DNA of 64,000 bases from a bacterium (lineage in GTDB: Bacteria; UBA8248), in the NCBI GenBank assembly GCA_965207065.1, contig OZ242260.1, forward strand, positions 2,208,001-2,272,000, written 5' to 3'. The notes under the pieces are model-generated. The model saw only the letters and a list, made by a program, of their open reading frames with translations, ran no database searches and was not told the DNA's origin. A program made the position numbers and the translations under genes. Each line of letters opens with the position of its first letter. Positions within the stretch are counted from its first letter, which is position 1. Shown piece by piece: positions 10,611 to 60,431 of this stretch.

Positions 10611-10904
10611 ATGGGCGCATACGTGGTCGGACACATCACCGTCAAGGACGAAGAGGGGTTCAACAACTACGCCGAGCAGGGGCTCGCAATCGTCGCCTCC
10701 GTCGGGGGCGAGGTGGCGGCGAGCGGACAGCTCGTGAAGGTGCTCACCGGCGAGCACGACAGGCAGATGTTCGTCCTCCTGAAGTTCCCCGACCAGGAGG
10801 CGGTGGAGAAATGGTATTACTCGGACGGTTACCAGGCCCTGATTCCGGGCCGCAACGAGGCGGTGGACATCACGTTCATCTCCTATGACGAGCCGGAGGA
10901 GTAA
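10611..10904 (+). CDS. DUF1330-family protein
   Basis: AAGGAG RBS before ATG 10611; MGAYVV...FPDQEAVEKWYYSDGYQ pattern. Confidence 0.8.
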   Translation: MGAYVVGHITVKDEEGFNNYAEQGLAIVASVGGEVAASGQLVKVLTGEHDRQMFVLLKFPDQEAVEKWYYSDGYQALIPGRNEAVDITFISYDEPEE

Positions 10905-11092
10905 GCGCAAACCGAGGGAGCGGGCGTGGGCGTTCCGGCCCGCGCCCGCTCTTCTCGTCCAGCCCCGAATCAGCACTCGATTCGCCGCCTCCATGAGAGC
11001 CCCGGCTTTCGCCGGAATGACGAAACTACTCCCGCGCAAGAACGGCGCGGGCGGTTCGCGACCTGTCCCTGCAGGCTCTGGTACGTAATTCC

Positions 11093-11911
11093 CTATTTTT
11101 TCCCGGCGGCGGCCGGTCTGGGCGCGGCCAGCGCCAGGGCGGAAGGCGCCCTGCGGAGGCTCAGCATGTAGACCGTGAGCGCTTCGAGATCCTCCGGCTT
11201 CAAATGGCCGTAGGCGGGCATGGCGGAACCGGGCGAAACCTTCTGCGGAAACTTGAAGTGTTCGATGTGCCACTTGGGGTCCTTCCGGCGCTCCCCCGCA
11301 AACGTCAGGTCGGGCCCGACGACCCCGCCGGCGCCCCTGATCTTGTGGCAGGCGAGACAGCCGTTCATCAGATACAGCAGCTTGCCCCTCTGGATGAGGG
11401 GGGCGTCTTTCAGGGCGCCCGCGTGGCAAGGGCCGCAGCTGGCCTGGATGAACCCGCCCCGCAGCAGCGGCTCCTCCCAGAACGGCACTTCTCCGTGGGC
11501 GTCCTGAACGCTCGTCGCCCGCCCCTGGCCCTGGTGGCACACGGTGCAGCCGAACTGCTCGAAGGGGTGCAGCGGGATGGTGGGATGCCTGGCGAAAGGC
11601 TGATCGGCATCCTTGAAAGCCGGGTGCTCGACCCCCCTGTGGCACATGACGCACCTGTCCACGCGCTCGCCTCCGGCCACGATGATCTGCTCGAACTGGT
11701 CCCCGCCCGACAGGGCGGCCTTGCGCTCCTCCTCGGTTCCGGCTCTTTCGACGAGCAATTCACGGAACGTCCGCTGGTAGCCCCGCCATTCACGGTCGTA
11801 GTCCTTCCAGACGGACAGCAGAAAAAACAGGGCCGCGCACACGCTCAGGGCGGCGAAGGCGACCACCCAGCCGAACGGCACATGGGAATCGTTGTGATTT
11901 GAATTCGCCAT
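11093..11911 (-). CDS. Membrane-anchored tetrahaem cytochrome c, partner of the Rieske/cyt b complex
   Basis: N-terminal TM helix; CVMCH, CTVCH, CGPCH, CLACH; PGSAMP axial Met motif. Confidence 0.88.
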   Translation of the reverse strand: MANSNHNDSHVPFGWVVAFAALSVCAALFFLLSVWKDYDREWRGYQRTFRELLVERAGTEEERKAALSGGDQFEQIIVAGGERVDRCVMCHRGVEHPAFKDADQPFARHPTIPLHPFEQFGCTVCHQGQGRATSVQDAHGEVPFWEEPLLRGGFIQASCGPCHAGALKDAPLIQRGKLLYLMNGCLACHKIRGAGGVVGPDLTFAGERRKDPKWHIEHFKFPQKVSPGSAMPAYGHLKPEDLEALTVYMLSLRRAPSALALAAPRPAAAGKK

Positions 11912-11923
11912 TCGTCATCCGCC

Positions 11924-13420
11924 TCAGTGCAGACCCGTTGCCTGCCACGGCCATATCCAGGCCCAGTTGGCGCCGCGGAAATAAAGCCCGATGAACGTGT
12001 AAATCAGATAAGACGTCAGAAAATAAGAATACAGGGCCAGGGCCCCCATCCGGCTCGACCCCGTCCGCCGCCAGATGTAGAGCGAACCGACCGCGAAGAG
12101 GACGATCAGTATGGTCCCCGGATTCAGGAGGTCGACCCATATCTGCGAGGCGCCCGGAACCAGCTTCCGCACCGCGTAGTGCTCGTTCAGGTAGGTCAGG
12201 ACGATTACGACCGGAATGATGACCAGTATCGACCAGAGCGTGATCCGCCGGCCCTGGCCCGAGGTGAACCAGGTTCCCTGGCCCTCGGGATTGCGGTCGA
12301 TGTAGGGAATGGTCATGAGCCCGATAATCGCGGCGGCGGGAACGATGACGCCTCCCGCCAAAGCGGAATAGCTCACGATTTCCTGAAGCCCGAGAAAGTA
12401 CCAGGGCGCCTTGGCGGGGTTGGGCGGATGGTCCGGGTTGGCCAGCTCCTCCAGAGGCGCGTCGAAAAAGTAGGCGACGACGGAGAGGACGGCCACCACT
12501 CCCACGAAGACGACCAGCATCCGGAAAACCGTGTGAGGCCAGCTCATGACCTCTTCTTCCGGCGCCTGGGAGTCGACCATGGGTGTTCTGCCCTCGGCCA
12601 GTTCCACGAGCATGTATGTCTTGTGCGGCGAAAAAGCCGCCGCTTCGCCCGGGGCGGCCTCCGAGGGTGACGCGGGCGGCCGGGAGAGGCCTCCGTCCTT
12701 GCGAATCCGCCAGAAATGGACGCCCATGAGGATCATCATGATTCCCGGCAGGAGTATGACGTGCATGACGTAGAACCGGATCAGCGCATTCTGCCCCACC
12801 GTATCGCCCCCGAGCATCAGCGTGCGGATGTATTCTCCGACCAGCGGCGGATAGCTGGCGATGCTCGACCCGACGGTGATGGCCCAAAACGCGAGCTGAT
12901 CCCAGGGGAGGAGGTAGCCCGTGAAGCTCATCATCAGGGTCGCCCCCCAGAGGAGCACCCCGATGACCCAGTTGAACTCGCGGGGCGCCTTGTAGCTGGC
13001 CGTATAGAACACGCGGCACATGTGCAAGAAGACGACGGCGACCATCGCGTGAGCGGCCCAGCGATGGAGATTCCGCAGGACGACGCCGTAGGAGACGACG
13101 AATTCCAGGTCCTTCATGTCGCTGTAGGCGCGCTCGGTCGAGGGGACGTAGAAGAACATGAGCAAAGCGCCGGTGCCCAGAAGGATCACGAAGAGGAACA
13201 GGGAGATGATGCCGAGTCCCCAGGTATAGGTAGGTTTCAGGCTGTGAACGTGCGTTCGCGCGGGAAGGACGTGCAGGAAGAAATTCGAGAACATGACGGC
13301 CGCGCGATCCAGATCGTTGTCCGGATAGCCCCTGCGGAAGATCGAACGGACGACGCGGTTGTCCGTAAGCCACGATACGGCTTTCTTGCGCCCTGTTTCC
13401 TTAGGGGATTCGGTGACCAT
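11924..13420 (-). CDS. Cytochrome b (fused b6 + subunit IV type, extra C-terminal helices)
   Basis: [36 protein letters not shown] haem ligands; Qo motif variant PAKAPWYF. Confidence 0.93.
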
Positions 13421-13429
13421 GATGACGGC

Positions 13430-13930
13430 TCAGATATTGAAATGCTCGGACGGGGCGACGACTTTGCGCGTATCGACCACGACGCGGCCATCCGGCGATT
13501 TCGTTATGTGGAAGAAGTCGAGCCCCCGAGGCGCAGGCCCCCCGAGCACCTGTCCCCGCCCGTCGAAAGTGCTGCCGTGGCACGGGCACCTGGCCCTCAA
13601 AATATCCGGAGATGCCCCCGGCGCCCCGACGAAGGGGGTAATCACGCAACGAAGATGGGGACAGACGGCCGTGCAGGCCCGGAACCCGTCCTTTTCACGA
13701 AACAGAACGATTTTCTTGTCGGCGAAAAACGTGATGGACCCCACGGTGTATTTCTCCAGGGCGTCGAGTTTCAGAACCGACTCGCCCTCATAAACGACGT
13801 TGGGGAACAGGAAGCGGACGTTGGCGAGGACCGGACCCAGCAGGGAAATCAGAAAGGAAACCCAGCCGAGGCCCAGGAGCATACGTCGCCGGGGGGTCTG
13901 TTCATCCATGCCCGCGCTCATGTCATCCAA
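13430..13930 (-). CDS. Rieske iron-sulfur subunit of a Rieske/cyt b complex
   Basis: RRRMLL TAT-like anchor; CPHLRC and CPCHGSTFD boxes; GPAPRGL. Confidence 0.93.
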   Translation of the reverse strand: MDDMSAGMDEQTPRRRMLLGLGWVSFLISLLGPVLANVRFLFPNVVYEGESVLKLDALEKYTVGSITFFADKKIVLFREKDGFRACTAVCPHLRCVITPFVGAPGASPDILRARCPCHGSTFDGRGQVLGGPAPRGLDFFHITKSPDGRVVVDTRKVVAPSEHFNI

Positions 13931-15968
13931 GCTCCACCCATTCTTCCTGGAAAGAAAAATTCTCGATGGTGACGGCGCCCGTGGGACAGCGCTGGGCGCA
14001 GAGCGAACAACGGATACACTTGTCCGGGTCCATGATCATGGCCGCGCCCCTCTCTACGGCGTCCCCGGCGGACGTTCCAAAGCGGGCCTGTACCAGAGCC
14101 GCCAGGTCCTCTCCTCCCTGCAGGGCTTCGAGGGGAACCATTCGCAGGCAGCGCGACGGGCAGACGTCCACACAGCCGCCGCAGAGGATGCACTTCGCGC
14201 CGTCGAAGATCGGGTTCGCGCTGCAGCGCAGACACCGAAGTCCCTGATCGACCGCTTCCCCGGGCGAATAGCCCAGTTCCACCTCGGCGACGCCGATTCT
14301 GCGCTCGATGGGCAGGGCGTCGGGATTTCGCCGAGACACTTTCTGGTATCCGGGGTTGACGATGGGAAGGGAAAACCCGTCCCCCGGCTCCTGGAGCAGC
14401 GCCTGCTGCAAGGGCTCGACAGAGGCCCACTGAAGATTTGTCTGGACGCCTGCCTGACCACCCGAGAGATAGGTGTGGATTGAGCGGGCGGCCCGGTGGC
14501 CGTTCTCCACGCCCTCGATGAAGATACGGGGGCCCATGGCGACGTCCCCGCCCGCGTACACGCCCGGAGCGGTCGTGGCCAGGGTTTCGGAGTCGACGCG
14601 AATGGTCCCGCGCGGCGTCGTCTCGACGCCGTCCTCCTCGCTGATCCAGGAAAGGTCGGAAGCCTGGCCGACGGCCACGATCACCGAATCGCACGGAATC
14701 ACGCGCTTGCTGTCCGGTTCGAATTCGGGGCTGAAGCGGCCCTCCTCGTCGAAGACGCGGGTGCACGTCTGGACTTCCAGCCCGACCACCCGGCCCTCTT
14801 TCTCCACGATGCGGACCGGCCCCACCCGGGGCTCGAGATCGATCCCCTCTTCGAGCGCCTCTTCAATCTCGAAGTCCGCCGCCGGCATCTCGTCGCGGGA
14901 TTCCAGGCAGATGACGTGGACGTTCCTCGCCCCCACGCGCATCGCCTCGCGGGCCACGTCCATCATCTCGCGCATGAGGACGGCGTCTTCCGTTTGATCG
15001 GCCGCGCTCGGGGAGGCATCTGCCTCGCCGGCCACCCGGGCGGCGACCCGGGCGGCGTCCATGGCCACGTTTCCCCCGCCGATCACGACGACGCGCTCGC
15101 CCAGTTCGACGCGGAAGTTCAGATTCACGTTCAGCAGGAATTCGACGGCCCGGAAAACGCCGTCCGCATCCTGGCCCTCCATGGGAAGAGAGCGGCTCAC
15201 ATGCGCGCCGATGGCGATGAACACCGCCTCGAAGCCTTCCTCGCGAAGGGTGGAGAGGTTGAAGTCCCGCCCGATGGCCTTGTTCACCCGAAGGTCCACG
15301 CCCAGGCTTAAGATGGCCTGAATCTCGGCCTGAACGAGATCGCGCGGAAGGCGGTATTCGGGAACCCCGAGCATCAGCATGCCTCCGGGGACGCCCTGTT
15401 TTTCGAAAACGCTTACGTCATAGCCGAGCAGGGCGAGATCGTGCGCGCAGGTCAGCCCCGCCACGCCCGAGCCGACGACGGCCACCTTTCGCCCCGCCGT
15501 TTCCACCCCCCCGGGCTTGCGGCGGGCCGCTTCCAGCACGGAGAAATCGTTGATGGTGCGCGTGGAGGGCTGAAAGCGGAGGTCGCGCATACTCCTGAGG
15601 CTGCGGTGCGAGAAGGAGGATTCCCCCTTGCCGGACGCCAGATCGGCCTCCACCCCGTAGCGCTCCGTCACGAATCGCTTGAGCGCACGGATGGCCACCG
15701 GCGCATCGATGTTGCCGCGGCGGCAGGCGGCTTCGCACGGCGCCGCGCAGACGCGCCCGCAAACCGACGCGAAGGGGTTGGGGCCCCGGGCGATGATGTA
15801 CGCGCGCTCGAAGTCTTCCTCTGAGATGGCGGTCACGTAACCCCGCGCGTCGGTATGGACGGGACACGCATCCTGACAGCAAATCGTTTTCCGCCAATGG
15901 TCGTGGCCGGGCAACTCGACCCGAAAGGAGCGCCCGGGAGGGAAGGGGTCCCGATTCGCTGAGTCCAT
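13923..15968 (-). CDS. FAD/NAD(P)-dependent Fe-S oxidoreductase (GltD/NfnB/DsrL-like) with C-terminal 2x[4Fe-4S] domain
   Basis: CQDACP, CGRVCAAPCEAACRR, GSGVAG, GGGNVA, YAGGD, CLRC, CILCGGCVDVCP, CIRCSLCAQRCP; start reassigned to ATG 15968. Confidence 0.88.
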   Translation of the reverse strand: MDSANRDPFPPGRSFRVELPGHDHWRKTICCQDACPVHTDARGYVTAISEEDFERAYIIARGPNPFASVCGRVCAAPCEAACRRGNIDAPVAIRALKRFVTERYGVEADLASGKGESSFSHRSLRSMRDLRFQPSTRTINDFSVLEAARRKPGGVETAGRKVAVVGSGVAGLTCAHDLALLGYDVSVFEKQGVPGGMLMLGVPEYRLPRDLVQAEIQAILSLGVDLRVNKAIGRDFNLSTLREEGFEAVFIAIGAHVSRSLPMEGQDADGVFRAVEFLLNVNLNFRVELGERVVVIGGGNVAMDAARVAARVAGEADASPSAADQTEDAVLMREMMDVAREAMRVGARNVHVICLESRDEMPAADFEIEEALEEGIDLEPRVGPVRIVEKEGRVVGLEVQTCTRVFDEEGRFSPEFEPDSKRVIPCDSVIVAVGQASDLSWISEEDGVETTPRGTIRVDSETLATTAPGVYAGGDVAMGPRIFIEGVENGHRAARSIHTYLSGGQAGVQTNLQWASVEPLQQALLQEPGDGFSLPIVNPGYQKVSRRNPDALPIERRIGVAEVELGYSPGEAVDQGLRCLRCSANPIFDGAKCILCGGCVDVCPSRCLRMVPLEALQGGEDLAALVQARFGTSAGDAVERGAAMIMDPDKCIRCSLCAQRCPTGAVTIENFSFQEEWVELG

Positions 15969-15978
15969 GCTCGCGACC

Positions 15979-16365
15979 CTATTTCGCCAGCGAGCGCATG
16001 AATGCGACCAGGTTCTGGAGGTCGGCGTCCGAAAGAACACCGCCCCAGGGTGGCATCAACGGTGATTTCCCTACCGCGACCCCGCCCAGCTTGGTGATCT
16101 TGGCGATATACTCGTCCGTTATGGTCTTCATGTATTTGGCGTCCGTGTGGTTTCGCGGCTTCGGGTTGAGCGCCTTGGCTGCGACGCCGTCTCCCTTGCC
16201 CGTTACACCGTGGCAGGAGGCGCAAAGCTGCTGGTATTTGACCTTGCCGGCTGCAACGTCGCCTTTCTGCTGAGCAGCGCTGTCACCTGCGGACGAGAAA
16301 AAGAGCGCCACAGCGAGCACCGGGCCTGTGCAGATGATAAATCTTCTCGATCGAGACATTCGCAT
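15979..16365 (-). CDS. Periplasmic monohaem class I cytochrome c
   Basis: Signal peptide, CASCHG, PKPRNHT, LMPPWG. Confidence 0.9.
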   Translation of the reverse strand: MRMSRSRRFIICTGPVLAVALFFSSAGDSAAQQKGDVAAGKVKYQQLCASCHGVTGKGDGVAAKALNPKPRNHTDAKYMKTITDEYIAKITKLGGVAVGKSPLMPPWGGVLSDADLQNLVAFMRSLAK

Positions 16366-16412
16366 TCAACCTCCCTCGCGGTTCTGCGGGCTTGTGTAAA
16401 CTTCCACCTCCG

Positions 16413-19079
16413 TTAAAGCGTCCGGGGAACGAAGCTCAAGCTCGTCAGCGAATGCTTGTGCGGAGACTCTCCTATCTTCTTCAACTTCCCCTTGCCCAGC
16501 TTGTAGCGGTAGCGGTTGGTCAGGGGGTCCGGCACCCGGTGAACCACCGAATTGGCCGGGTTCTCGGGAAAACCGAAATAGGCGAAGGTGACGCCCTCCC
16601 GAACCGCGTCGGTGACCATGGCCACGGCGGTGAAGCTCCCCTTGCTCTTCTTGATCCGCCCGGCCTTCATGAGCTCGGTGAAGGTCTGCTCCTTGCCGTC
16701 GACGCCGATGTATCCGCCCGTCTGCACGAGGAGGTCGTCGTTCTCGATGGCCACCAGGTCTCCTGATTCGATGCCCCGGGCGCCGGCGTCTTTGGGGTGT
16801 ATCTCCAGGAACTGCTGCGGCCAGCGCTGCATGATGTAGGGCCGACGCTTGTCGTCGTAGCCGGATTGCCAGAGCTCGTTGATCCGCCCGTTCGTCACCC
16901 ACAACTCGTCTCCCTGCGGGGTGACCCGCTCGTAGAAATCCTTGAAGTCCTCCCAGTAGCTCTTCAGCAAAACCGCCTTGCCGCTCTGGGTCCCGAAGGA
17001 GGTGAGCCACTTCCTGTGCATGGTGGGGCCTTCGGGGGTTCCCAGTTCGAGGGTCTCGTCGTGGAGCCGCTTCGTCCCGACGAGTTCGCCCTTGACCATG
17101 CGGATGGGGGTCTGGATGCCGCCGGTCCCGTATTCGCGGAGCAGTTCGTGGCCCCGTTTCCCCTCGCGCTTGGCCTTCACGACGAGCGGATGGTAGTTGA
17201 GCACCCCTTTTCTTCCGAAGCGGGCCGCCTCCTCGAATATCTGGTTGCTGTCCTTCCAGTCGAAGCCCTTGAAGCCCATCTTCCTCGCGAAAGCGGCGAT
17301 GATCCACCAGTCGGGCCGGGCCTCTCCGGGCGGGTCGGCGAATTTGCTGTAGAGCCTGAGGCGGCGCTCGCCGTTGCAGCGGGTGAAGTCTTCCTCGCCC
17401 CAGGTGGCGGCCGGAAGAATCAGATCCGAATACTCGGTTCCGATGGGAGCAACCGGGTAGATATCCTGGTGGGCCACGACCATGCCGCCGGCGTCCACTC
17501 GCCGCTTTAAGGCGTCCACCGCCGAATCGACGTCGAAGCTCTCGATCTGATGCGGGTTGCGGCGCGTCAATCGCTGGAAGACGTCCATCAGCTCCTGTGA
17601 CGCCGCCATGGCCTGGCACCAGGTGGTTCCGATGACCCATGCGAAGCGAACGTGGCCGTCCACGACCCAGCGGTCGAGGTCGATCTCCTTCTTGCGGCGC
17701 CCCGGCGCCTTCTCCGGAGATAAGGCCCTCGGGTAACCGGCCGCGCCCATCCAGCCCCGTTGGTGCCCACCGCCCCGGGAGATAACACGGCCCGGCCGCG
17801 ACCCGGCGCCGCAGACCAGCCCGAGGGCCGCGAACGAAGCCGTGTTCCCGAAACTGTTGCACCAGTAGTTTCCCTTCTCGAGCATGAACGAGGTCTTCTT
17901 GCGCGTTCCGTCGGGCTTGGGCTTGGCGAGGATTTCGGCTGTCTTTCGAATGTCCGCCGCCGGCACGCCCGTGATCTTCGCGGCTCGCTCCAGTTCGGCG
18001 TAGGGATAGCTCAGGATCCACTTCCTGTAGCCCTCGAAGTCGGTCCCGTACTTGCCCCAGGTCGTGACCCACTGCCACGGCGTGTTGCGGGTGCCGCGTC
18101 CCATGCCGGAGCCGATCTCCCACTTGTTCGACACCTTTCTCGCGATAAACTCCTTGTCCTCCCAGCCGTTCTCGAGGATCAGGCGGATGATGGCCAGTTG
18201 GAGAACCGTATCCGTTCCCGGAATCACGGGGAGGAAGAGGCCTCCCTGCTTCTCGCCGTAGGCCACGCCCGAGGTCTTGCGCGGAAGGGCGAAGACCAGC
18301 TTCTTGTTCGGCGTTTTTCCGCCCATGATCCACGAGGTGAATAGCACCGACTTGGTCTCCCACGGGTCGACGCCCGAGAAGAAAATAACCTCGGCCTCTC
18401 CCCAGTCGTCATAGGAGGCGCTGAAGGGATTGATGCCTGAAAAATCGATCCCCGGCGTATCCGGACCGGGACCCGGCTTGTCGTGCGGGGCATACGCCGG
18501 CGTTCCGATGGCTCGGAAGGCGAGTTTGGAGATGGCGTAGGTGTTTTCGAAATACTGATAGGAATACGTCTTCATGGCCCAGGCGTGTTCGCCGAACTTG
18601 TCGAGCACGTGTTTCGAGATTCCCGCCATGACGCCCATGGCCGTATCCCACGAGACCTCCTGCAAGGTTCCGCGAACGCGCATCATCGGCTGGCGCAGGC
18701 GGTCCTGCGAGGGTTCGTTGGGATTGTAGAGCTTCTTCGCCAGGACGCCGCCCCGGATGGAGTGGTTTCCCCCGACGTTCACGACCTTCGCATCCTTGTC
18801 CGGCATGACGATGACGTGGTGTGGGCGGCCGTTCACCATGATGATGTTGTGCATGTTCGGGCTGACCCAGCCGCCGCTCATGATGCCGGTGGGAAAATCG
18901 ACGCCCAGCGCGTTCTGGTTGGCCCTGGGCCCGCCCTCGCGCCCGATCGGCCAGCGGTAGACCTTGTACCCGCAGCCCACGATGCAGTAATCGCACGCCG
19001 TGGTGAAAACCTCCGCGTTTCGCGGGGGGAGGGGGACACTGTCTTCCGCAAGGTAGTAGTTCGTTACCTTTCCTGCCAT
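16413..19079 (-). CDS. idrA: DMSO-reductase-family molybdoenzyme, AioA-like; probable iodate reductase large subunit
   Basis: VPLPP..A....TACDYCIVGCGYKVYRWP [3Fe-4S] motif (canonical AioA has CHFC); GGHQRG, NGERRLR, TNGRINELWQS; no signal peptide; adjacent to a Rieske gene and two peroxidases. Confidence 0.8.
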   Translation of the reverse strand: MAGKVTNYYLAEDSVPLPPRNAEVFTTACDYCIVGCGYKVYRWPIGREGGPRANQNALGVDFPTGIMSGGWVSPNMHNIIMVNGRPHHVIVMPDKDAKVVNVGGNHSIRGGVLAKKLYNPNEPSQDRLRQPMMRVRGTLQEVSWDTAMGVMAGISKHVLDKFGEHAWAMKTYSYQYFENTYAISKLAFRAIGTPAYAPHDKPGPGPDTPGIDFSGINPFSASYDDWGEAEVIFFSGVDPWETKSVLFTSWIMGGKTPNKKLVFALPRKTSGVAYGEKQGGLFLPVIPGTDTVLQLAIIRLILENGWEDKEFIARKVSNKWEIGSGMGRGTRNTPWQWVTTWGKYGTDFEGYRKWILSYPYAELERAAKITGVPAADIRKTAEILAKPKPDGTRKKTSFMLEKGNYWCNSFGNTASFAALGLVCGAGSRPGRVISRGGGHQRGWMGAAGYPRALSPEKAPGRRKKEIDLDRWVVDGHVRFAWVIGTTWCQAMAASQELMDVFQRLTRRNPHQIESFDVDSAVDALKRRVDAGGMVVAHQDIYPVAPIGTEYSDLILPAATWGEEDFTRCNGERRLRLYSKFADPPGEARPDWWIIAAFARKMGFKGFDWKDSNQIFEEAARFGRKGVLNYHPLVVKAKREGKRGHELLREYGTGGIQTPIRMVKGELVGTKRLHDETLELGTPEGPTMHRKWLTSFGTQSGKAVLLKSYWEDFKDFYERVTPQGDELWVTNGRINELWQSGYDDKRRPYIMQRWPQQFLEIHPKDAGARGIESGDLVAIENDDLLVQTGGYIGVDGKEQTFTELMKAGRIKKSKGSFTAVAMVTDAVREGVTFAYFGFPENPANSVVHRVPDPLTNRYRYKLGKGKLKKIGESPHKHSLTSLSFVPRTL

Positions 19080-19091
19080 GATGCGTCCTCC

Positions 19092-19634
19092 TCAGCGCTG
19101 TACCGGCGCAAGATTCGAGTGGTAACCGTATAGCAGCCCCATCATCCCGATCGCGTAGATGTCGTCCCCGCGGGTCTCCAGTACGACCTGGGGGAGGCTT
19201 TCCGTGGCCTGCCCGGCCCCGACCATCCCGTGCTTCATCAGGTCGAAGGTCGTCAGATGGAACGGGCACGGGCCAATGGCCTTGTGCTGCGCGTTGTATG
19301 TGCCCTGGAGGGGACCGCCCATGTGGGTGCACAGGGTGCTGAACGCCACGACGTCTCTCCTGGGGCCGACGCCGCCGCCTGCGGCGACGCCCAGCTTGAC
19401 CAGCATGCACCCCGAGAAGACGTCCTTCCACGGATACTGGAAGAACTGGGGGGTATCGACTTTGAGGGCGCTTAGCTTGCCGATTTTCCGGCGGGGATAC
19501 TCAGCCCTCTGCAGGGCCGCACCGGCCAGGCCGGGGATGCCCTCGACCAGCACGATGCTCATGGCGGTTCCGCCGGCCAGGAGAAAGGCGCGCCGCGAGA
19601 CGCAAGGCCGGGTTTCCTTGGCTTCCTGAGTCAT
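19092..19634 (-). CDS. idrB: AioB-like Rieske small subunit; probable IdrB
   Basis: TAT signal SRRAFL; CTHMGG and CPFH ligands (disulfide Cys absent); GQATESLPQV, GLLYG. Confidence 0.8.
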   Translation of the reverse strand: MTQEAKETRPCVSRRAFLLAGGTAMSIVLVEGIPGLAGAALQRAEYPRRKIGKLSALKVDTPQFFQYPWKDVFSGCMLVKLGVAAGGGVGPRRDVVAFSTLCTHMGGPLQGTYNAQHKAIGPCPFHLTTFDLMKHGMVGAGQATESLPQVVLETRGDDIYAIGMMGLLYGYHSNLAPVQR

Positions 19635-19644
19635 GGATTCCTCC

Positions 19645-20784
19645 TTACTGCATGGCCGCGTACGGCGGCAGTTCGGGGGGCTTCATGAGCAAAGGCTCAT
19701 CGCTCGATAACGATTCCAGGAAGGCGAGCAGGTCTTCCTTCTCCTCGTCAGAAAGCCCCAGTTTCTTGAGAAGCGGACTCTTGTTCGCGTCCTCTCCCCC
19801 TCCTTCGTCATAAAAGTCAATGACCTCATCCAACTCGAAAAACGCGCCGTTGTGCATATAGGGCGCCGTGTATTTCAGCTCCCTGAGGCTGGGGGTACGG
19901 AACCTCCCCGTATCAGCCTTGCGCTTGGTGGTGTAGTAGAGCCCCAGGTCCCGGTCCGCTTTCCGGTAGACGGATTCGGGAACGCCTCTGATCACGTGCT
20001 GGAAGCGAAGCGTTATCTGCCTCAAGGGGTCTTCCTCGAACGCGGGGTTCTTCGGCACGCCGACGTTGTGATAGTCCTCATCCGAGAGGAGAGGGCCGTT
20101 GTGGCACTGGACGCACCCCGCCTTTCCTTGAAAAAGAGCCAGCCCGCGCTCAGCGCTTTCCGAGAGCGCCTTCTTGTCCCCTTTCATGAAGCGGTCGAAC
20201 GGCACGTCCTTCGCATTCGAAACTATGGTGCGCTCGAAGGCCGAGATGGCCCGCCATGCGTCGTCGATGGTCGGCCAGGGGGATCCGAACACCGTACGGA
20301 AGCGCTTGACGTATTCGGGAATCTGGCGCAGGCGCTCCTCCATCATCATGGTGTCGCCGTTTCCGGCCACGTTGCCCGTGGCGGCGCTCTTGGCCTGGGC
20401 TTCGAGGCTCGGGACCTCGCCCGCCCAGAACAGTTTTGCGTAATAGGCGGAATTGAGGATCGTCTGGGAATTCCGCCAGTGCTGCGTGCCCGGGTAGCCC
20501 CGGCTCAGGTCCCCGCCGTCTCCCCAGCCGCTCTCGGGGCTGTGGCAGGAGGCGCACGACGTGCTGGCGTCCCCCGACAGGCGGGCGTCGAAAAAGAGCA
20601 GCTTGCCCAACGCCACCTTGGCGGGTGACATGGGATTGTCCGCAGGCACCGGAACAGGCGGCAAGGGCCCCAGCGGAGGGAATTTCCCCTTCTCGGCCGC
20701 GTCCGCTCCTCCCACCAGAAGGGCGGCGATGAAGCAGACGGCCATCGTGGAACCCAGGAAGCAGTTTTTCATTCGCGCGTTCAT
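19645..20784 (-). CDS. Di-haem cytochrome c peroxidase/MauG family (IdrP-like)
   Basis: LGKLLFFDARLS, CASCH, CVQCH, FRTPSLRE..TAPYMHNG; GAGGAG RBS before ATG 20784. Confidence 0.9.
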   Translation of the reverse strand: MNARMKNCFLGSTMAVCFIAALLVGGADAAEKGKFPPLGPLPPVPVPADNPMSPAKVALGKLLFFDARLSGDASTSCASCHSPESGWGDGGDLSRGYPGTQHWRNSQTILNSAYYAKLFWAGEVPSLEAQAKSAATGNVAGNGDTMMMEERLRQIPEYVKRFRTVFGSPWPTIDDAWRAISAFERTIVSNAKDVPFDRFMKGDKKALSESAERGLALFQGKAGCVQCHNGPLLSDEDYHNVGVPKNPAFEEDPLRQITLRFQHVIRGVPESVYRKADRDLGLYYTTKRKADTGRFRTPSLRELKYTAPYMHNGAFFELDEVIDFYDEGGGEDANKSPLLKKLGLSDEEKEDLLAFLESLSSDEPLLMKPPELPPYAAMQ

Positions 20785-20794
20785 GGCCGTCTCC

Positions 20795-21901
20795 TCAATT
20801 ATCGCCGAGTTTGCGGAGTTCATAATCGGGAATTTTCGGTTCTTTCGCGGAAACCACCTCGCCCGAGAGGCTCTTCATGAATTCCACCAGCGCCTTTTGC
20901 TCACCCGCATCGAGTCCCAGCGGCTTGAGCCGCGGACTCTTGTTCGGGCCGCTCCCGCCGCCCTTGTTATAGAAGGCGACGACGTCCTCAAGCGCGGCGA
21001 GCGCGCCGTTGTGCATGTAGGGAGCCGTCCGGGCGACTTCGCGCAGGGTCGGCGTGCGGAACTTGCCCCGGTCGCGCTCCTCTTTCGTCACGACGTAGAG
21101 GCCCGGGTCGGCCCTCAGATTCATGAAGTTCGGGACGCCGATCACCTTGTTGAAGCGGCGGAACGTGATGTGGCGCAGCGGGTCCTTGAATATCTGTTCG
21201 TTTTCGGGAACGCCGAGCGCATGAAATCCGCCGTCGCTCAAAAGAGCGCCATTATGGCACCCGGCGCATCCGGCCTTCCCCCGGAAGAGGGCGAGACCCT
21301 TCTGCGCCTCGGCGGAAAGGGCCTTTTTGTCGCCCTTCAAGTAGTTGTCGAAAGGCACGTTCCTGGACGTGATGGTATGAAGGAACGCCGCGATGGCCTT
21401 GAGCGAGCCGCCGAAGGAAGGCTCCCCGCCATAGGCCTCCTTGAACATCTTGACGTAGGCGGGAACCTGCTTGAGCCGCTCGGGGAACAGACGGCCGTCC
21501 ACCAGCATGAAGTGGGCTTCCGTCAGGTGGTCCCGCACGAGGGTGGGCAGGTCGGCCCCGCTCAGGCGACCGTCCCAGAAAACGCGCTTGTTGTAGGCGG
21601 CGTTCAGGAGCGTCTGGGCGTTCCGGAAATACTTGCTGCCGGGATAGCCCGTAGAGAGGCTCTGCCCGTCGCCCCATCCCCTGGCGGGTTGATGGCAGGT
21701 GGCGCAGCTGATGCCTCCGTCCCCCGACATGCGGGGGTCGAAGAACAGATGCCGGCCCAGTTCGGTCTGCGCGGGCTTCTGGGCCCTGGGCGCCGGCAGG
21801 GGTTCGAGAGATGCCCCCCACCCCGCTGCAGGGAGCAAGACCCAGGCGCTCAGCAGGATTCCGCAGAGTATCCGGCGCCGGATGGCGCGAACTAAATCCA
21901 T
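20795..21901 (-). CDS. Di-haem cytochrome c peroxidase/MauG family (IdrP-like), paralogue
   Basis: LGRHLFFDPRMS, CATCH, CAGCH, FRTPTLRE..TAPYMHNG; signal peptide. Confidence 0.9.
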   Translation of the reverse strand: MDLVRAIRRRILCGILLSAWVLLPAAGWGASLEPLPAPRAQKPAQTELGRHLFFDPRMSGDGGISCATCHQPARGWGDGQSLSTGYPGSKYFRNAQTLLNAAYNKRVFWDGRLSGADLPTLVRDHLTEAHFMLVDGRLFPERLKQVPAYVKMFKEAYGGEPSFGGSLKAIAAFLHTITSRNVPFDNYLKGDKKALSAEAQKGLALFRGKAGCAGCHNGALLSDGGFHALGVPENEQIFKDPLRHITFRRFNKVIGVPNFMNLRADPGLYVVTKEERDRGKFRTPTLREVARTAPYMHNGALAALEDVVAFYNKGGGSGPNKSPRLKPLGLDAGEQKALVEFMKSLSGEVVSAKEPKIPDYELRKLGDN

Positions 21902-21973
21902 TCTTCCCTCCTCCCAAGCTGGCTGTTCTATCTCCTGTAAGACATCCGTCCCGTATATGCTGGAAATACGGCC

Positions 21974-22717
21974 TTATTTCGAAGAGAACGTGAAGGCGGC
22001 GGTCTTCTTCCCCCCGGCGGTTATGGTGATCTTCTTCTTCTTGACCCCCAGGGCCGGGTGCCACGCCCGCAGGGAATATTTCCCCGGAGGAACGTCGTTG
22101 ATCTCGAAGCTCCCGTCATCGTTCACGAGCGCGTAATAGGGATTCCTGGCCACGAAGAGAAAGCCCTTCATCCAGTTGTGCACGTCGCACTCGATACGGA
22201 CGATGGGGCTGCGCCGGACCTTCGCCCTGCGGACGACTTTCTTCCGCTGCTTGGGCTGGGAGATGTTCCACATGGAGCGTTTCGCCCGGCCGATGATCTC
22301 GTAGGTGTGGATGTTGTGGTGGGCGTCGTCGCTGTTCAGGATGGTGACCTTGCCCCCCTCGGCGACGACCTGGAGGTAGGGGACGTAGGCGCACTTCTTC
22401 TGGTCCACCACGGCGCTCTGGATTTTCTCGGGGTAAGCCTTGCCCTTCTTCACCTTGTCGAGATAGACGACAACGCCCCTGAGGGCGCCGTCCTTCGCGT
22501 CCACCTCCTGGCGGGTGACCTGGCCCTCCCCGCAGGCGTGCTGGTCCTTGGTGATGATGTATTTGACGGGCTTGGGAGGCTCGCCCTCGAAGCTCACCTT
22601 GCCGGTGACGGCGCCGCCGCCTGTGATAGATACGACTTTGTACTTCGCCAGGGAAGCGTCTGGAAAAAAGAGAAAAGGCAGGGACAAAACGAAAGGCAAG
22701 AAAAATTTACGAATCAT
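21974..22717 (-). CDS. Exported cupredoxin-like / carboxypeptidase-regulatory-like domain protein
   Basis: Signal peptide; DQKKCAYVP, NSDDAHHNIH, CDVHNWM, DGSFEINDVPPGKYSLRAWHP. Confidence 0.75.
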   Translation of the reverse strand: MIRKFFLPFVLSLPFLFFPDASLAKYKVVSITGGGAVTGKVSFEGEPPKPVKYIITKDQHACGEGQVTRQEVDAKDGALRGVVVYLDKVKKGKAYPEKIQSAVVDQKKCAYVPYLQVVAEGGKVTILNSDDAHHNIHTYEIIGRAKRSMWNISQPKQRKKVVRRAKVRRSPIVRIECDVHNWMKGFLFVARNPYYALVNDDGSFEINDVPPGKYSLRAWHPALGVKKKKITITAGGKKTAAFTFSSK

Positions 22718-23076
22718 TGCGAAAGCTCCCCCACGAAGTCCTGCATTGGCTCACGGCAACCCTGTCATCTATGAATCCGAGTCGTAATCCATCCTCCTCA
22801 TCAGCGGAGTGTCGGCGCGGAACGCGAACTTCCTTGCGTTTCCGGTCCCGTCCGAACGTGTGAGAAGCGGTATCGACACCCCTGAAACGCTACGGATATC
22901 CGGTCCTGAATCCATGAGTGCCGCGCGCTCTTTATAAGCTTGTTCCTGTTTTCAATATAAGGACAACGCTCGAATGTTGCAACAAAATGGAAGTCCGGTT
23001 TTTCCCCGATGGGCGGGGCGTTGCAAGGGCCGTTGCCAGGGTGGCGAACGCTCCCTCCTTCCCCGGGAGCGCCCCA

Positions 23077-23265
23077 CACCTATATGTCTGACCTACACCA
23101 GCCTCGCGACCAAATCGATTTGCGGGATGAGGGTGTGAAAGAGACGAAAAGGCAAAATCAAAATGGATTCCGGCTTTCGCCGGTATGACGAGCAAAACCG
23201 CACCGCCTCTTGTAGTGACAGCCCCTCCACGGGGCTGTCCCACAGGTCGCGACCTGTGTCCCTAC
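23077..23265. repeat. REP-like repeat cluster
   Basis: TATATGTCTGACCTAC, GGATTCCGGCTTTCGCCGGTATGACG and GTAGTGACAGCCCC...GTCCCTAC; resembles 9262-9352 and 26680-26850. Confidence 0.7.
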
Positions 23266-51639: not shown

Positions 51640-52448
51640 TTGCGCCAGGCTAAGCCCTGGAGAGGAGGATGCCATGACCTGAAACCTCTCGTAGCGACCC
51701 AGCGGGTTCGACTCCCGCCCGGCAAAGGCGAAGCCGGCCAGCCGGAAGCGAGTCTTGCATGGCGTGCGGCAACGCCCGTCGTGAAGCGTAGACAGCAGGT
51801 GATGAAGCGGCGGGGTAAGCCTCGAAATCGGTCAATCGACGACGCCTTCATTGTTAATCGTGTGGGGGCAGCACCAGGAGCGCCGCCAATGGCGAGGCGC
51901 AACGGGTCGTCCGGGGTCGTGGGCCGGCGCAAAGTCACGGGACGGGTCGCCAGGGAACCTGGGAGATCCTGCTCTTGCCCGTGGGCAAGAACGCTGGAAA
52001 GGGGACGGCCAGCGTGAACAATCCAGACCCCGGCCCGTCGCCGGACCTGCACGGCGGCGGGAGCGCCCCAGGGCGGACACGAACCCGGCAGGCGCCCGCG
52101 GAACCGGCTGGCCAAAACAATAAGCCGAAGGACATGCGAGGGTAGGAAGTCGTAGCGCCCTGATAGTACCGCTGAAGGCGGGGAACCGTGGCCATCGGGA
52201 CCCGCTGGAGGGAAGCGGGGCGTCATCTGTACAGAACCACTGATGGGAAACGATGGAGGAAACTCTGAGTTCCACCAACACGTACACGAAACAGCAGTGG
52301 ATAGCCGAACAGGCGAGGAATGCCTCGACCTGCGGACCAAGGGTGACAACCCCTTGAGCGAACCTGTCAGGTGAGGAACCGAGTGCGTCAATCGCGCACG
52401 CTCGGGTCTGCGGGGGGAGGGGCGCAGCAATGCCCCCTCCTACCCGGC
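51640..52448 (+). ncRNA. Group II intron with internally deleted RT ORF
   Basis: 5' TTGCG; domain V-like GAACCGAGTGCG..CGCACGCTCGGGTCTG; domain VI-like GGGGCGCAGCAATGCCCCCTCCTACCCGGC; only about 22 codons resembling an RT start (MEETLSSTNTYTKQQWIAEQAR) remain near 52253. Confidence 0.8.
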
Positions 52449-52461
52449 CATGGTTAGTAAC

Positions 52462-53613
52462 CGATGGAGTGGACGCGCCCTCCCGGCGCCATCAAACTGG
52501 GCGTGTTGACATTGGTCTGCCGCCCTGCGGGAGGAGCGAGATGGAACAGGTCCACATCATCGGTATCGACTTGGCGAAACACGGATTTCAACTCCACGGC
52601 GCGCGCCCGGACGGGTCGGTCGCGTTCCGCAAGAAGCTGACGCGGGGGAAGGTGTTGGGTTTTCTGGAATCGCAGCCTCAGTGCCGGGTTGCGATGGAGG
52701 CATGCGGGAGTGCGCACTATTGGGGCCGCGAGATCGGCGAACTCGGCCATGAGGTGAAGATCATGCCACCGCGATATGTGAAGGCGTTCGTCAAGCGTCA
52801 GAAGAACGACGCCGCGGATGCAGAGGCGATCTGCGAGGCGGCCTCTCGTCCCACGATGCGCTTTGTGGCCGTGAAGACAGAAGAGCAGCAGGCTTTGGGG
52901 ATGCTGTTCCGCACGCGCGACTTGCTGGTTCGCCAGCGGACCCAGACGGTCAACGCCTTGCGCGGGCACCTGGCGGAGTTCGGCGTCATCGCCCCCAAGG
53001 GTACCGCCCACGTCGTACAGCTGGCGTCCGCCGTTGCGGACCCGGACTCGGGGCTGCCCGAGTCTGTTCGCGAACCGGGCGGGCTTCTGCTCGGGCAGAT
53101 CGCCGACCTGAACAGGAAAGTCGGGGAACTGGAGAGCCGGATCCGCTCGGGCGCTTACGAGGAACAGGAGGCGAGGCGACTGATGAGCATCCCGGGAATC
53201 GGGCCGATCTGCGCGTCGGCGATACTGGCCTTCGCGCCGCCGATGGAGAGCTTCCGGAGCGGGCGGGACTTCTCCGCCTGGCTCGGCCTTGTGCCGCGAC
53301 AGCACTCGACCGGAGGCAAGTCTCGACTGGGCAAAGTGTCGAAGATGGGACAGCGCGACATCAGGCGGCTGTTGATCACGGGTGCAATGACGGTGGTGCG
53401 CTGGGCGGACTGGCGCGGCGCGCCGCCGGGCTCCTGGCTCGCCCGGATGCTGGCGCGCAAGCCGAGGATGCTGGTCGCGGTGGCGCTGGCCAACAGGATG
53501 GCGCGCATCGCCTGGGCGCTGATGACGAAAAGAGAATGCTACAGGGAGCCTGCGCCGGGCATCTGAACGGCAGGCGGGCGAATATAGACGGGAGGAATGT
53601 AAGCAGGTCGGAA
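52462..53613 (+). mobile_element. IS110-family (IS1111-type) element; transposase 52541-53566 intact, right end apparently truncated
   Basis: IGIDLAK, MEACG, KNDAADAEAI, GLVPRQHSTGGK; left end ATGGAGTGGACGCGCCC; no matching right end seen. Confidence 0.9.
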
Positions 53614-57813: not shown

Positions 57814-58740
57814 CTAGTGTGATGTCCTCAACAAAAAGATGATTATAATGGATTAAGTAACGCGGCTCGTGCCCGACCGACCTTTTCGACGATCTCTGCG
57901 ACGCTTTTCGTCCAGACGAATGGCCGGGGATTTTCGTTGTAGCTGCCCACACATTCTCTGAGACATCCCTCGAGGTGGGGAACCGAAGTGAAGACCCCGC
58001 GGCGCATCCGCTTGTCGGTCAGCATGGCAAAGAACCGCTCCACCAGATTGACCCACGACGCGCTCTTCGACATAAAATGCAGGAACACCCGGTTGTTCCG
58101 CTCGATCCACCCGAGCACCTTCTCGTGCTTGTGGGTGGCGTAGTTGTCCAGAACGATATGGATCTCCTGGTCTTTCGGCGCCTGCCTCTCGACCTCGCGC
58201 AGGAAGCGCAACACCTCCTGGTGGCGATGCTTGCGATACGTCTTGCCGGGCACTTCGCCGGTCGCCACGTTGAGCGCCGCGAACAACGTGGTCGTGCCGT
58301 GGCGCTTGTAATCATGCGTCATCGTTGCAATGCGTCCCTTCCTGAGCGGCAACCCCGGCTGCGTCCAGTCCAACGCCTGTATCTGACTCTTCTCATCGAA
58401 GCTGAACACCACCTCTTTCCCCGGTGGGGTGAGGTACAATCCCACCACGTCCTGCACTTCTCCTCGAAACGCGCGTCGTTGCTCAACCGGAACGTCCGTA
58501 TCAGGTGCGGCTTGAGCCCGTGTGCGCACCACACACGATACACGATGCTGTGCGTTGTCCCCAGATACCGCGCATGCTCCCGGCTATCCTTCCCGTCGTG
58601 ATTCCCGCCGCACGGCCGTTCCTTCTCGATCATCGATACGCCTTCCGCGGTAACCCGCGTGCGCCAGCGACCCACCTAGTTCGCGTCGACCCCCAACTCC
58701 GCCACTATCGCCTTGTTCGTCATCCCTCCCACGGCCAGCA
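57814..58740 (-). mobile_element. IS630-family element, frameshifted transposase
   Basis: DEKSQIQALD.TQPGLP, THDYKRHGTTTLFAAL, VLDNYATHK, SWVNLVERFF; CTAGTGT end at 57814; N-terminal half split across frames. Confidence 0.88.
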
Positions 58741-59479: not shown

Positions 59480-60431
59480 CGCCCCAAGCAAGCATTTCCG
59501 GTCAGACATATCCATCATTGAGTTGATGGATATGCTCCCGGACGAGGACGCGGCCCATGAGTGGTTCGAGTCCGTATACTGGCCCGAGGTGAGGTGCTGC
59601 TGGCATTGCGGGAGCGTCAAGACGAGTCCCGTCAAGAACCGCAAGCCCATGCCCTAGTGGTGCGGGGATTGCAGGAAGTATTTCAGCGTCAAAACGGGCA
59701 CTGCTATGGCAAGCTCGAAAATCCCCATGCGCAAGTGGGCAATCGGGATATACCTCTATCTCACCTCGCTCAAGAGCGTTTCGAGCATGAAGCTCCACCG
59801 GGATTTGGGGATCGGACAGAAGGCAGCCTGGTTCATGCTTCACCGATTGCGCGAGGCGTGGAACCTGGAGGATGGGCTTCTCTTTGATGGCCCGGTCGAG
59901 GTTGATGAGTCATTTTTCGGGGGCCGGCGTCGCAACATGAGCAACGAGAAGCGGGCGAAGGAAACGGGACGAGGCCCAGCTGGCAAATCGGCTGTTGTTG
60001 GTCTTAAGGATCGCTCTACAAACAAGGTGAGAGCGAGGATGTTATCCAAAATGGACGCACGCACGCTTCAAGGCTTCATCGTGGAGCATACGAAAGAAGG
60101 GGCGATGATTTGGACGATGCGAGCGCATACGACAGCCTCCATAATCATCAATCCGTCAAGCACTCCGGTGAGCGAGTTCGTGAAGGGTCAAGCGCATACG
60201 AACGGCGTAGAGAGCTTCTGGTCGATGCTCAAGAGGGCGCACAAGGGAACGTTTCACAAGATCAGCCCGAAGCACTTGAACCGATACGTTCAGGAGTTCG
60301 CAGGAAAACACAATATTCGGGGTGAGGATACCCTGGAGCAAATGAAGTTCGTCGCGCTTGGGCTTACAGGATAACGTCTCAAGTATCGTGATTTGATTGC
60401 AGACAATGGGCTTTCTAATGAAGCTGTCTAA
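59468..60431 (+). mobile_element. IS1595-family transposase pseudogene
   Basis: CWHCGS..C.DCRKYFSV zinc ribbon, VEVDESFFGG, HTNGVESFWSMLKR; TAG 59655-59657, frameshift near 60110, TAA 60372-60374. Confidence 0.88.

Follow-up and report, generated by a model that had tools for sequence, protein, structure and literature searches.

An idr-type gene cluster joined to an anammox-type flavoprotein Rieske/cytochrome b complex in an uncultured bacterial lineage

Ten co-oriented genes in two units

The genome behind contig OZ242260.1 (assembly GCA_965207065.1; GTDB lineage Bacteria; UBA8248), a single contig of 4.48 Mb, carries ten co-oriented genes in which two known kinds of system are newly combined, namely an idr cluster, encoding a predicted iodate reductase, and a flavoprotein-bearing Rieske/cytochrome b complex. 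The genes lie in a stretch of 64,000 nucleotides (positions 2,208,001 to 2,272,000 of the forward strand), hereafter the window, to whose first letter all coordinates without a locus label refer. The window was analysed with an open reading frame (ORF) listing, Pfam and NCBIfam profile searches, motif reading, consensus scans and Rfam, and published work is cited for those portions of each text that were available. In the available portions of the literature, above all PMC8692401, PMC13455634, PMC10989891 and PMC11373643, on which this negative leans, we found no description of an idr cluster with a private Rieske/cytochrome b complex, flavoprotein or cupredoxin, although neighbourhood figures or supplements might show such clusters.

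The ten minus-strand ORFs run from 22717 down to 11093 and are separated by 72, 10, 10, 12, 47, 10, -8, 9 and 12 nt; this order and spacing, as given by an earlier first-pass annotation made from the sequence, were confirmed by the ORF listing together with domain searches. The gap figures use the starts ATG 20784 for the second peroxidase gene, ATG 15968 for the flavoprotein gene and TTG 13930 for the second Rieske gene, for which ATG 13921 is an alternative. A GGAGG-like stretch precedes most starts, among them ATG 20784 with GAGGAG, and the one at 15968 is weak. Unit 1 consists of cupredoxin, two peroxidases, IdrB and IdrA, and unit 2, called the module below, of cytochrome c, flavoprotein, Rieske protein, cytochrome b6/subunit IV and tetrahaem cytochrome c. 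In order of transcription, with lengths in amino acids (aa), the features are:

21974-22717, minus strand: predicted cupredoxin with a CarboxypepD_reg-like sandwich, 247 aa (conserved ligands, AlphaFold2, Foldseek)
20795-21901, minus strand: first IdrP-type di-haem cytochrome c peroxidase, 368 aa (PF03150, 144.9 bits; CxxCH at 66 and 212)
19645-20784, minus strand: second IdrP-type di-haem cytochrome c peroxidase, 379 aa from ATG 20784 (PF03150, 147.9 bits; CxxCH at 77 and 224)
19092-19634, minus strand: IdrB, Rieske [2Fe-2S] small subunit (TIGR02694, 123.5 bits, cut-off 95.65; SRRAFL)
16413-19079, minus strand: IdrA, molybdopterin catalytic subunit, 888 aa (TIGR02693, 458.7 bits, cut-off 359.05; PF18465, PF00384, PF01568)
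15979-16365, minus strand: monohaem class-I cytochrome c, 128 aa (PF13442/PF00034; one CxxCH)
13923-15968, minus strand: GltD-like FAD/NAD(P)/Fe-S flavoprotein, 681 aa (Pyr_redox_2, Fer4_20, two [4Fe-4S])
13430-13930, minus strand: membrane-anchored module Rieske protein (PF00355; RRRMLL and a transmembrane helix; CPHLRC ... CPCHGSTF)
11924-13420, minus strand: fused cytochrome b6/subunit IV, 498 aa (cytochrome b N- and C-terminal domains; ExtP/ExtQ the best NCBIfam matches)
11093-11911, minus strand: membrane-anchored tetrahaem cytochrome c, 272 aa (four CxxCH, N-terminal transmembrane helix; PF02433/PF00034)
22954-22982, minus strand: weak sigma-70-like match, 9 of 12 positions, about 240 nt upstream of the cupredoxin gene

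The ten-gene arrangement is conserved across related loci and hence not a product of chance. Consensus scans gave no usable promoter or terminator within the operon, and the sigma-70-like match upstream is the single one in the region, against a mean of 1.7 in shuffled sequences, and thus not above chance. The gap between idrA and the cytochrome c gene (16365-16413), where the first-pass annotation had considered a transcription break, holds no intrinsic terminator of any quality detectable by scan and is bridged by a contig assembled from an RNA library. Such contigs were taken from Logan for positions 10800-23200 in four runs, namely two sponge RNA-Seq runs, one sponge metatranscriptome and one of unrecorded kind that we guess to be RNA. 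The sponge-metagenome-labelled contigs match the operon at 90-99% identity. The bridging one (X10 record 13, sponge metatranscriptome) covers 16144-16550 with 38 differences in 407 positions; X1 record 4 spans the junction of cytochrome c and flavoprotein, and X10 record 11 that of flavoprotein and Rieske gene. Both operon halves are covered, and several bins left uncovered in three of the four runs were not interpreted.

The idr-type cluster and its cupredoxin

Both peroxidases, for which we leave the names P1 and P2 unassigned, are of the CCP_MauG di-haem type with a hydrophobic N-terminus. IdrB carries a twin-arginine (Tat) signal, SRRAFL, and IdrA, itself without signal peptide, has the 3Fe-4S motif C29-x2-C32-x3-C36 at its N-terminus along with the Rieske_3 domain PF18465. 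Relatives of IdrA were searched in 185,579 species genomes, and the best 80 of 595 were kept. The nearest are metagenome-assembled genomes (MAGs) titled Nitrospinota (96-97% identity), followed by Methylomirabilota and Rokubacteria (76-77%), so that the frame of reference first applied to this DNA (Pseudomonas, REP elements) is inapplicable. As deep members of the IdrA clade PMC8692401 names NC10, Rokubacteria, Lindowbacteria and Planctomycetaceae, and it is to these groups that the window IdrA comes closest. Two peroxidase genes lie upstream of idrBA in 23 of the 37 related loci whose neighbourhood was counted, most of the others being cut by contig ends. It is by such adjoining peroxidase genes that Reyes-Umana et al. 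delimit the IdrA clade, separating idr from aio neighbourhoods; the threshold of their profile hidden Markov model for IdrA is a score of at least 640 (PMC8692401).

In a search of plasmid records, the window IdrA proved 58% identical to that of Azonexus hydrophilus NCP973, one of five isolated iodate respirers (PMC13455634), whose plasmid locus reads peroxidase, peroxidase, small subunit, large subunit, c-type cytochrome and moaA. Identity to the AioA of NT-26, Thermus HB8, Nitrobacter and others is 28-31%. A quick maximum-likelihood (ML) tree of 31 rows, 4 AioA and 27 Idr-like sequences with one demonstrated IdrA (NCP973) among them, parts the two groups by a long branch and places the window IdrA and NCP973 within an 11-row subclade (SH-aLRT 100). 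Because of its domains, the peroxidase synteny, the identity to NCP973 and the grouping in the tree, we file unit 1 as an idr-type cluster, predicted to encode a periplasmic iodate reductase of the idrABP1P2 kind, in agreement with the first-pass annotation of these five genes. Clusters of this kind from SAR324 and alphaproteobacterial MAGs confer iodate reduction on E. coli (PMC13455634).

With the idrABP1P2 clusters of Pseudomonas sp. SCT, Denitromonas iodatirespirans IR-12 and NCP973 the window shares the order peroxidase-peroxidase-idrB-idrA, the Tat signal on IdrB, the AioA-like Mo subunit with its 3Fe-4S motif and, as far as NCP973 is concerned, a c-type cytochrome after idrA (the two cytochromes being only weakly alike, with 29% identity over 80 aa). 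It differs from them in the cupredoxin gene at its head and in the complete flavoprotein-Rieske/b complex after idrA, and whereas their hosts are proteobacterial, its own belongs to an uncultured lineage. AioAB is alike in superfamily and subunit make-up, in the NCBIfam cut-offs passed and in having a small periplasmic copper protein or cytochrome as partner, but unlike in its low identity, its separate clade, the peroxidase genes adjoining idr and the opposite electron flow to be expected. The cut-offs of TIGR02693 and TIGR02694 evidently take in IdrA-type proteins as well, and among the relatives listed the IdrA clade carries 'arsenite oxidase / arsenate reductase (azurin) large subunit' names, one fragment being named generically. 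Automatic annotation as arsenite oxidase therefore hides idr genes in this clade. Four gammaproteobacterial MAG loci (L018, L019, L020 and L028) hold IdrBA-like pairs of 51-61% / 54-56% identity, at 9464-12916 in L018, with a large subunit about 85 aa longer; they form a four-row clade of their own beside the Idr clade, and no peroxidase gene lies within 10 kb upstream in L018-L020, while L028 has less than 1 kb of upstream room.

The first gene would encode a periplasmic type-1 copper cupredoxin, with copper binding predicted from its residues and modelled fold. The label 'cupredoxin-like' originally given to it was right, albeit not by Pfam directly, which finds in the protein the C-terminal CarboxypepD_reg/fn3_3 sandwich and no cupredoxin family. 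H134, N135, C177, H180 and M183 are invariant in 14 homologues, and the pattern H134-N135...C177-x2-H180-x2-M183 is what we take to be the ligand set of amicyanin-type blue-copper sites. The AlphaFold2 model (mean pLDDT 88.7) has as its best PDB matches in Foldseek plastocyanin, amicyanin and pseudoazurin (TM 0.6-0.7 by target) and the cupredoxin domain of NirK, PF00127 is matched by all three homologues tested (metagenome loci L128, L136 and L149), and an N-terminal hydrophobic segment resembles a signal. The protein thus has the fold of amicyanin, pseudoazurin and plastocyanin and their His...Cys-x2-His-x2-Met ligands with a His-Asn pair, and differs from them by the added sandwich domain. 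Homologues occur near idr in 11 of the 37 loci. In a metagenome scan, in which a query alignment of 40 flavoproteins yielded the 80 nearest loci (41-58% identity), they lie at most 1.2 kb upstream of the flavoprotein gene in 46 of 62 loci; here and below, fractions are counted among loci with enough contig room for the gene concerned. The two-domain cupredoxin is therefore a recurrent first gene of flavoprotein-Rieske/b operons and also a neighbour of idr clusters.

Upstream of many cupredoxin-flavoprotein-Rieske/b operons in soil-type metagenome contigs we found a protein of 450-520 aa without Pfam match. In L128:7735-9300 and L136:7841-9205 it has a single N-terminal CxxCH, an architecture like that of Cyc2-type outer-membrane cytochromes, whereas the protein of L135 lacks this motif; similar ORFs are seen in L190, L159, L131, L118 and L145.

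The flavoprotein-bearing Rieske/cytochrome b module

The monohaem cytochrome c, which has a signal-like hydrophobic N-terminus, belongs to the Rieske/b module and not to idr, since it is retained with the module in idr-free loci of kin. In three kin genomes of other genera (L093, L095 and L096) the five module genes stand alone behind an Rrf2-family regulator gene (L093:6149-6787, L095:6338-6823, L096:14596-15063), a gene not present upstream of the window operon. The flavoprotein has an N-terminal Fe-S domain with six invariant Cys, FAD and NAD(P) Rossmann motifs (GSGVAG and GGGNVAMD) and a C-terminal 2x[4Fe-4S] ferredoxin domain; the protein contains CxxCxxCxxxCP twice, and Arg557 and three more Cys are invariant. 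It has no hydrophobic segment, as for a cytoplasmic protein, and is single-copy in the genome. In the metagenome scan, the gene is followed by cytochrome b within 2.5 kb in all of the 53 loci with room, and cytochrome b in turn by a tetrahaem-like multihaem cytochrome in 36 of 38.

Cytochrome b keeps the haem ligands H119/H133 and H220/H235 with the b6-type spacing 14/15, and its subunit-IV part has five hydrophobic segments, read by eye (291-324, 348-375, 390-417, 426-450 and a C-terminal one). The tetrahaem cytochrome c, whose last haem domain is FixO-like, occupies the place of cytochrome f/c1. Like b6f and bc1 complexes, the module has Rieske CxH...CxCH boxes, four b-haem His, here with b6 spacing, and the motif region of the quinol-oxidation site; unlike them, it lacks cytochrome f/c1 and the haem c_n site and has an added flavoprotein. 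The operon's complex is an extra one, for at 3.765 Mb the genome has a separate housekeeping set, with Rieske, b6 and subunit IV split, whose b6 keeps the haem c_n cysteine. At the position of that cysteine the module cytochrome b has Gly68, and none of its 36 nearest homologues has a Cys there, which suggests that the n-side quinone-reduction site of b6-type complexes appears to have been given up. This loss fits the flavoprotein as n-side partner. His50 is found in 35 of 36 sequences and also in the housekeeping b6; the Kuenenia cytochromes b have an N-terminal His (His43/His62) proposed as possible ligand of an extra b haem at the dimer interface (PMC12954380), to which His50 may correspond.

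As its best solved relative the module Rieske protein has that of Kuenenia (9rk4_A, E 7.3e-15), a second Kuenenia structure (9rk3) matching at E 1.7e-9 and b6f Rieske proteins at about 1e-9. Module and housekeeping Rieske proteins share one Ser/Phe pattern after CPCHG, which thus gives no indication of a special potential. Structure prediction of the flavoprotein with cytochrome b, as proposed by the first-pass annotation, was carried out as docking of flavoprotein residues 480-681 on two copies of cytochrome b 1-330. It reached an ipSAE of 0.46, whereas the best of three controls scored 0.00; contact agreement among the three runs is at least 80%, with a partner pLDDT of at least 65. Of 157 solved complexes 116 reach the mark, as do 2 of 215 mismatched pairs, yet scores up to 0.60 comprise only 18 of the 157 and both mismatches, and the result is rated as weak support for a flavoprotein bound to the cytochrome b dimer.

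The architecture of the module is not new, being of a kind known, though not understood, from anammox bacteria (PMC12954380). The Kuenenia complexes encoded by Kuste4569-4574 and Kustd1480-1485 comprise a Rieske protein, a b6-type cytochrome b, a five-helix subunit IV, a multihaem cytochrome c and an NAD(P) oxidoreductase (PMC12954380), and the window module shares all of these, including a cytoplasmic oxidoreductase with an Fe-S chain. It differs from them in the fusion of cytochrome b and subunit IV, in having four haems in its multihaem protein and not six or eight, and in lacking a HAO-like partner, its neighbouring terminal enzyme being the predicted iodate reductase, which would supply a named high-potential acceptor. 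For Kustd1480-1485, PMC12954380 states that no such acceptor has been proposed. The 16 papers in which the Kuenenia locus tags occur all appear to concern anammox bacteria, as judged by the 13 titles listed.

The module pairs with various periplasmic reductases, as the differing neighbours of two of its relatives indicate: directly after one lies a cd1-type nitrite reductase to which several c-type domains are fused (L151:13533-16076), and directly after the other come a multihaem protein and a Mo enzyme of another kind, with an Fe-S subunit (L161:7740-10484). In seven kin loci (L097-L101, L105 and L106) we also observed a third Rieske/b set without flavoprotein (Rieske about 35% and split cytochrome b about 45-48% identical to those of the module), near which, except in L097, lies a protein of 900-1005 aa with a tetrahaem-like domain (six of seven loci).

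Joining of the units and proposed electron flow

The linkage of the two units was surveyed in 51 species genomes of the window's GTDB phylum, which are kin and not independent samples, with a fused cytochrome b of at least 57% identity over nearly the whole length taken as module orthologue. The module is present in 20 genomes and IdrA in 17, all of which have the module; none of the 31 genomes without module has IdrA. In 15 of the 17 the two share a contig and are no more than about 6 kb apart, and in the two remaining cases they are found at contig ends (G014) or on different contigs (G048). A genome of another family (G007) has the window's gene order at L092, and in G036 the order is rearranged to module, cupredoxin, peroxidases, IdrB, IdrA (L094). 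The module cytochrome b of G007 (L092:9952-11463) contains one in-frame TAG, which may be a sequencing error, a pseudogene or recoding.

Outside the phylum, a Calditrichaceae locus (L013) repeats the window's order: unit 1 is complete from cupredoxin to IdrA, and after a second cupredoxin-like gene come flavoprotein, Rieske, cytochrome b and pentahaem c. Its IdrA falls in a different subclade of the quick ML tree from that of the window, and its flavoprotein clusters with modules from metagenomes, at a distance from the clade of the window flavoprotein, whose sister group is formed by NC10-type sequences. Since both proteins belong to other subclades, we infer that the junction of idr and module arose more than once, with about three or four independent joining events. 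The earlier proposal that idr and the genes for a Rieske/cytochrome b complex, a flavoprotein and c-type cytochromes make up one operon-like unit thus held up; their linkage is seen again in kin, there also in another order, and separately in Calditrichaceae. A GltD-like gene near idrA in L010 was not counted as module, as it lies on the opposite strand within a 1191-aa ORF at 29% identity.

Regarding the host, the genome has MqnA/D-family genes, and UbiA_proteo stays below its cut-off; on these grounds the quinone points to menaquinone. Two NuoD matches (complex I) and one haem-copper oxidase were found among the respiratory genes, and no large subunit of RuBisCO was found in the genome. Nitrite oxidation coupled to iodate, an idea prompted by the Nitrospinota label and by a passage in PMC11373643, was dropped, as the best NxrA/NarG-type match reaches 134.9 bits against a cut-off of 984.75.

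We consider it somewhat probable that the operon joins a unit of the idrABP1P2 kind to a specialised anammox-type flavoprotein Rieske/b complex, with quinol bifurcation as the favoured mode of action. How electrons pass at each step, which substrate is reduced and which way the NAD(P) leg runs is our reading of gene content, cofactor motifs, export signals, homology and recurrent linkage. Quinol, probably menaquinol, would be oxidised at the Qo site. One electron would pass from the Rieske centre to the tetrahaem cytochrome c, on to the soluble cytochrome c and/or the cupredoxin, and through IdrB and IdrA to iodate, while the peroxidases would clear reactive by-products; we regard this high-potential path as likely. 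The second electron would cross the membrane via the two b haems to the Fe-S chain of the cytoplasmic flavoprotein and not return to quinone, a proposal that follows from the loss of the haem c_n site in this cytochrome b. Iodate accepts electrons more strongly than nitrite or nitrate do (IO3-/I- about +0.7 V), and its strong pull could let this second electron reduce NAD(P)+, a quinol bifurcation as proposed for the anammox complexes. Hauser et al. argue for quinol bifurcation to NAD(P)+ where a strong acceptor pulls the other electron, and describe NAD(P)H input as energetically wasteful where proton-pumping NADH dehydrogenases exist (PMC12954380). Growth yield is reported to be higher on iodate than on nitrate (PMC13455634). 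Given the strong acceptor, this energetic argument and the complex I genes, we favour bifurcation over NAD(P)H input with modest confidence, by analogy. In its sharpest form, that of an iodate-driven, quinol-bifurcating NAD(P)+ reductase in which a cytochrome b without quinone-reduction site feeds an NAD(P)H-making flavoprotein, the proposal is tentative, and we hold it to be possible but rather doubtful.

Several observations weigh against this interpretation. The module stands alone in G050, G048 and G040, of which G050 and G040 lack IdrA, and none of the 80 metagenome loci with the nearest flavoproteins has an IdrA-like gene. Conversely, among the 26 idr loci whose contig extends at least 3 kb past idrA, the module is found, by our own count, in only 3, two of them kin. 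The idrABP1P2 genes alone suffice for iodate reduction in E. coli (PMC13455634), and in published Idr models an ordinary bc1 complex and cytochrome c551 supply the electrons (PMC8692401). Neither unit needs the other. Haem c_N is part of the published Kuenenia models (PMC12954380), whereas the window module is without its cysteine, so that the analogy may not carry. A heterotroph with complex I, a haem-copper oxidase and no RuBisCO has no obvious special need for NAD(P)H. The contact of flavoprotein and cytochrome b is weakly supported by docking, and the RNA-library contigs are a hint of expression that cannot prove one transcript, as such libraries can hold DNA. Because the module stands without idr, as in the three kin loci and all 80 metagenome loci, and most idr loci (23 of 26) lack the module, the operon is a dedicated electron-supply variant and not an obligatory chain; the 'self-contained' chain originally claimed for it was not borne out.

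The wiring first proposed for the NAD(P) leg ran in the opposite direction, as an NAD(P)H:iodate oxidoreductase chain with the flavoprotein as entry point, from which electrons would pass through Fe-S clusters and b haems, with or without quinol, to Rieske protein, tetrahaem c and cytochrome c and on to IdrAB and the peroxidases. The cofactor chain (FAD, NAD(P) site and at least four Fe-S clusters) is reversible in principle, the lost haem c_n/Qi cysteine fits any model with the flavoprotein on the n-side, and docking is silent on direction. However, only quinone chemistry at the Qo site could take electrons from the b haems to the Rieske centre, and the route would be wasteful beside proton-pumping NADH dehydrogenases (PMC12954380), for which the genome has NuoD genes; with the anammox literature arguing for the reverse direction, we consider this chain unlikely.

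The two units might also be merely co-located, the module being a general low-oxygen quinol:cytochrome c/cupredoxin oxidoreductase that is co-regulated or has moved together with idr, and IdrAB drawing on a common carrier pool. The idr-free modules of kin and metagenomes speak for this, as do the varied neighbours of module relatives (the cd1-type nitrite reductase, the other Mo enzyme, the Cyc2-like proteins) and the function of Idr without module elsewhere. Yet the gaps of 47 and 10 nt with no terminator found, the finding that 15 of the 17 IdrA genomes in the phylum have the two side by side, even after rearrangement (if among non-independent kin, with perhaps three or four events), the independent join in Calditrichaceae and the lack of IdrA in all 31 phylum genomes without module make simple co-location, in our view, improbable. 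AioAB uses azurin or cytochrome c as partner, both NCBIfam arsenite-oxidase equivalog cut-offs are passed, database names say arsenite oxidase and Cyc2-like proteins adjoin module relatives. Nevertheless, that the Mo enzyme oxidises arsenite or another reduced compound and sends electrons via cytochrome c or cupredoxin into the module, uphill to quinone or NAD(P)+, is highly improbable given 28-31% identity to known AioA against 58% to the IdrA of a demonstrated iodate respirer, the clear separation in the tree and the two peroxidase genes, the published mark of idr versus aio (PMC8692401).

Some further features lie around the operon or elsewhere in the genome. A cytochrome c' gene (PF01322; 9433-9978, minus strand) is found 1.1 kb downstream, with a plus-strand DUF1330 gene in between. 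Rfam shows no riboswitch near the operon, its sole match in the window being a group II intron at 51.7 kb (D1-D4 match, 51709-51926, plus strand, 124 bits, gathering score 49). The intron adjoins an IS110-family transposase gene (52430-53566), and more transposase genes are located at 57843-58532 and 59706-60374. An ankyrin-repeat protein gene is present at 60694-61560 (plus strand). Genes of this sort are characteristic of symbionts of sponges, in keeping with the occurrence of operon relatives in sponge RNA libraries. At 1.747 Mb of the genome, far from the operon, lies a gene of the Cld family, which also includes haem-biosynthesis enzymes, and nothing is drawn from this gene.

Electron supply to Idr has so far been modelled, in the available literature, as running from quinol via bc1 to cytochrome c551, and the operon hints at an answer: its host and the Calditrichaceae represent lineages with a private set of supply genes, among them one for a conserved blue-copper protein of which we found no mention beside idr in the accessible parts of the idr literature. 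If the iodate-driven bifurcation is true, the two-domain cupredoxin would be the general carrier of the widespread flavoprotein-Rieske/b module. The names 'arsenite oxidase' found in databases mislead for the IdrA clade, and the operon adds a sponge-associated lineage to the known range of idr, a point of relevance to the cycling of iodine in sponges. The function of flavoprotein-bearing Rieske/b complexes has been debated for years in anammox bacteria, and their pairing with a reductase of a defined soluble substrate offers a simple assay with quinol, iodate and NAD(P)+. If true, the proposed bifurcation would be the first anammox-type mechanism with a named, chemically simple high-potential acceptor in the same operon.

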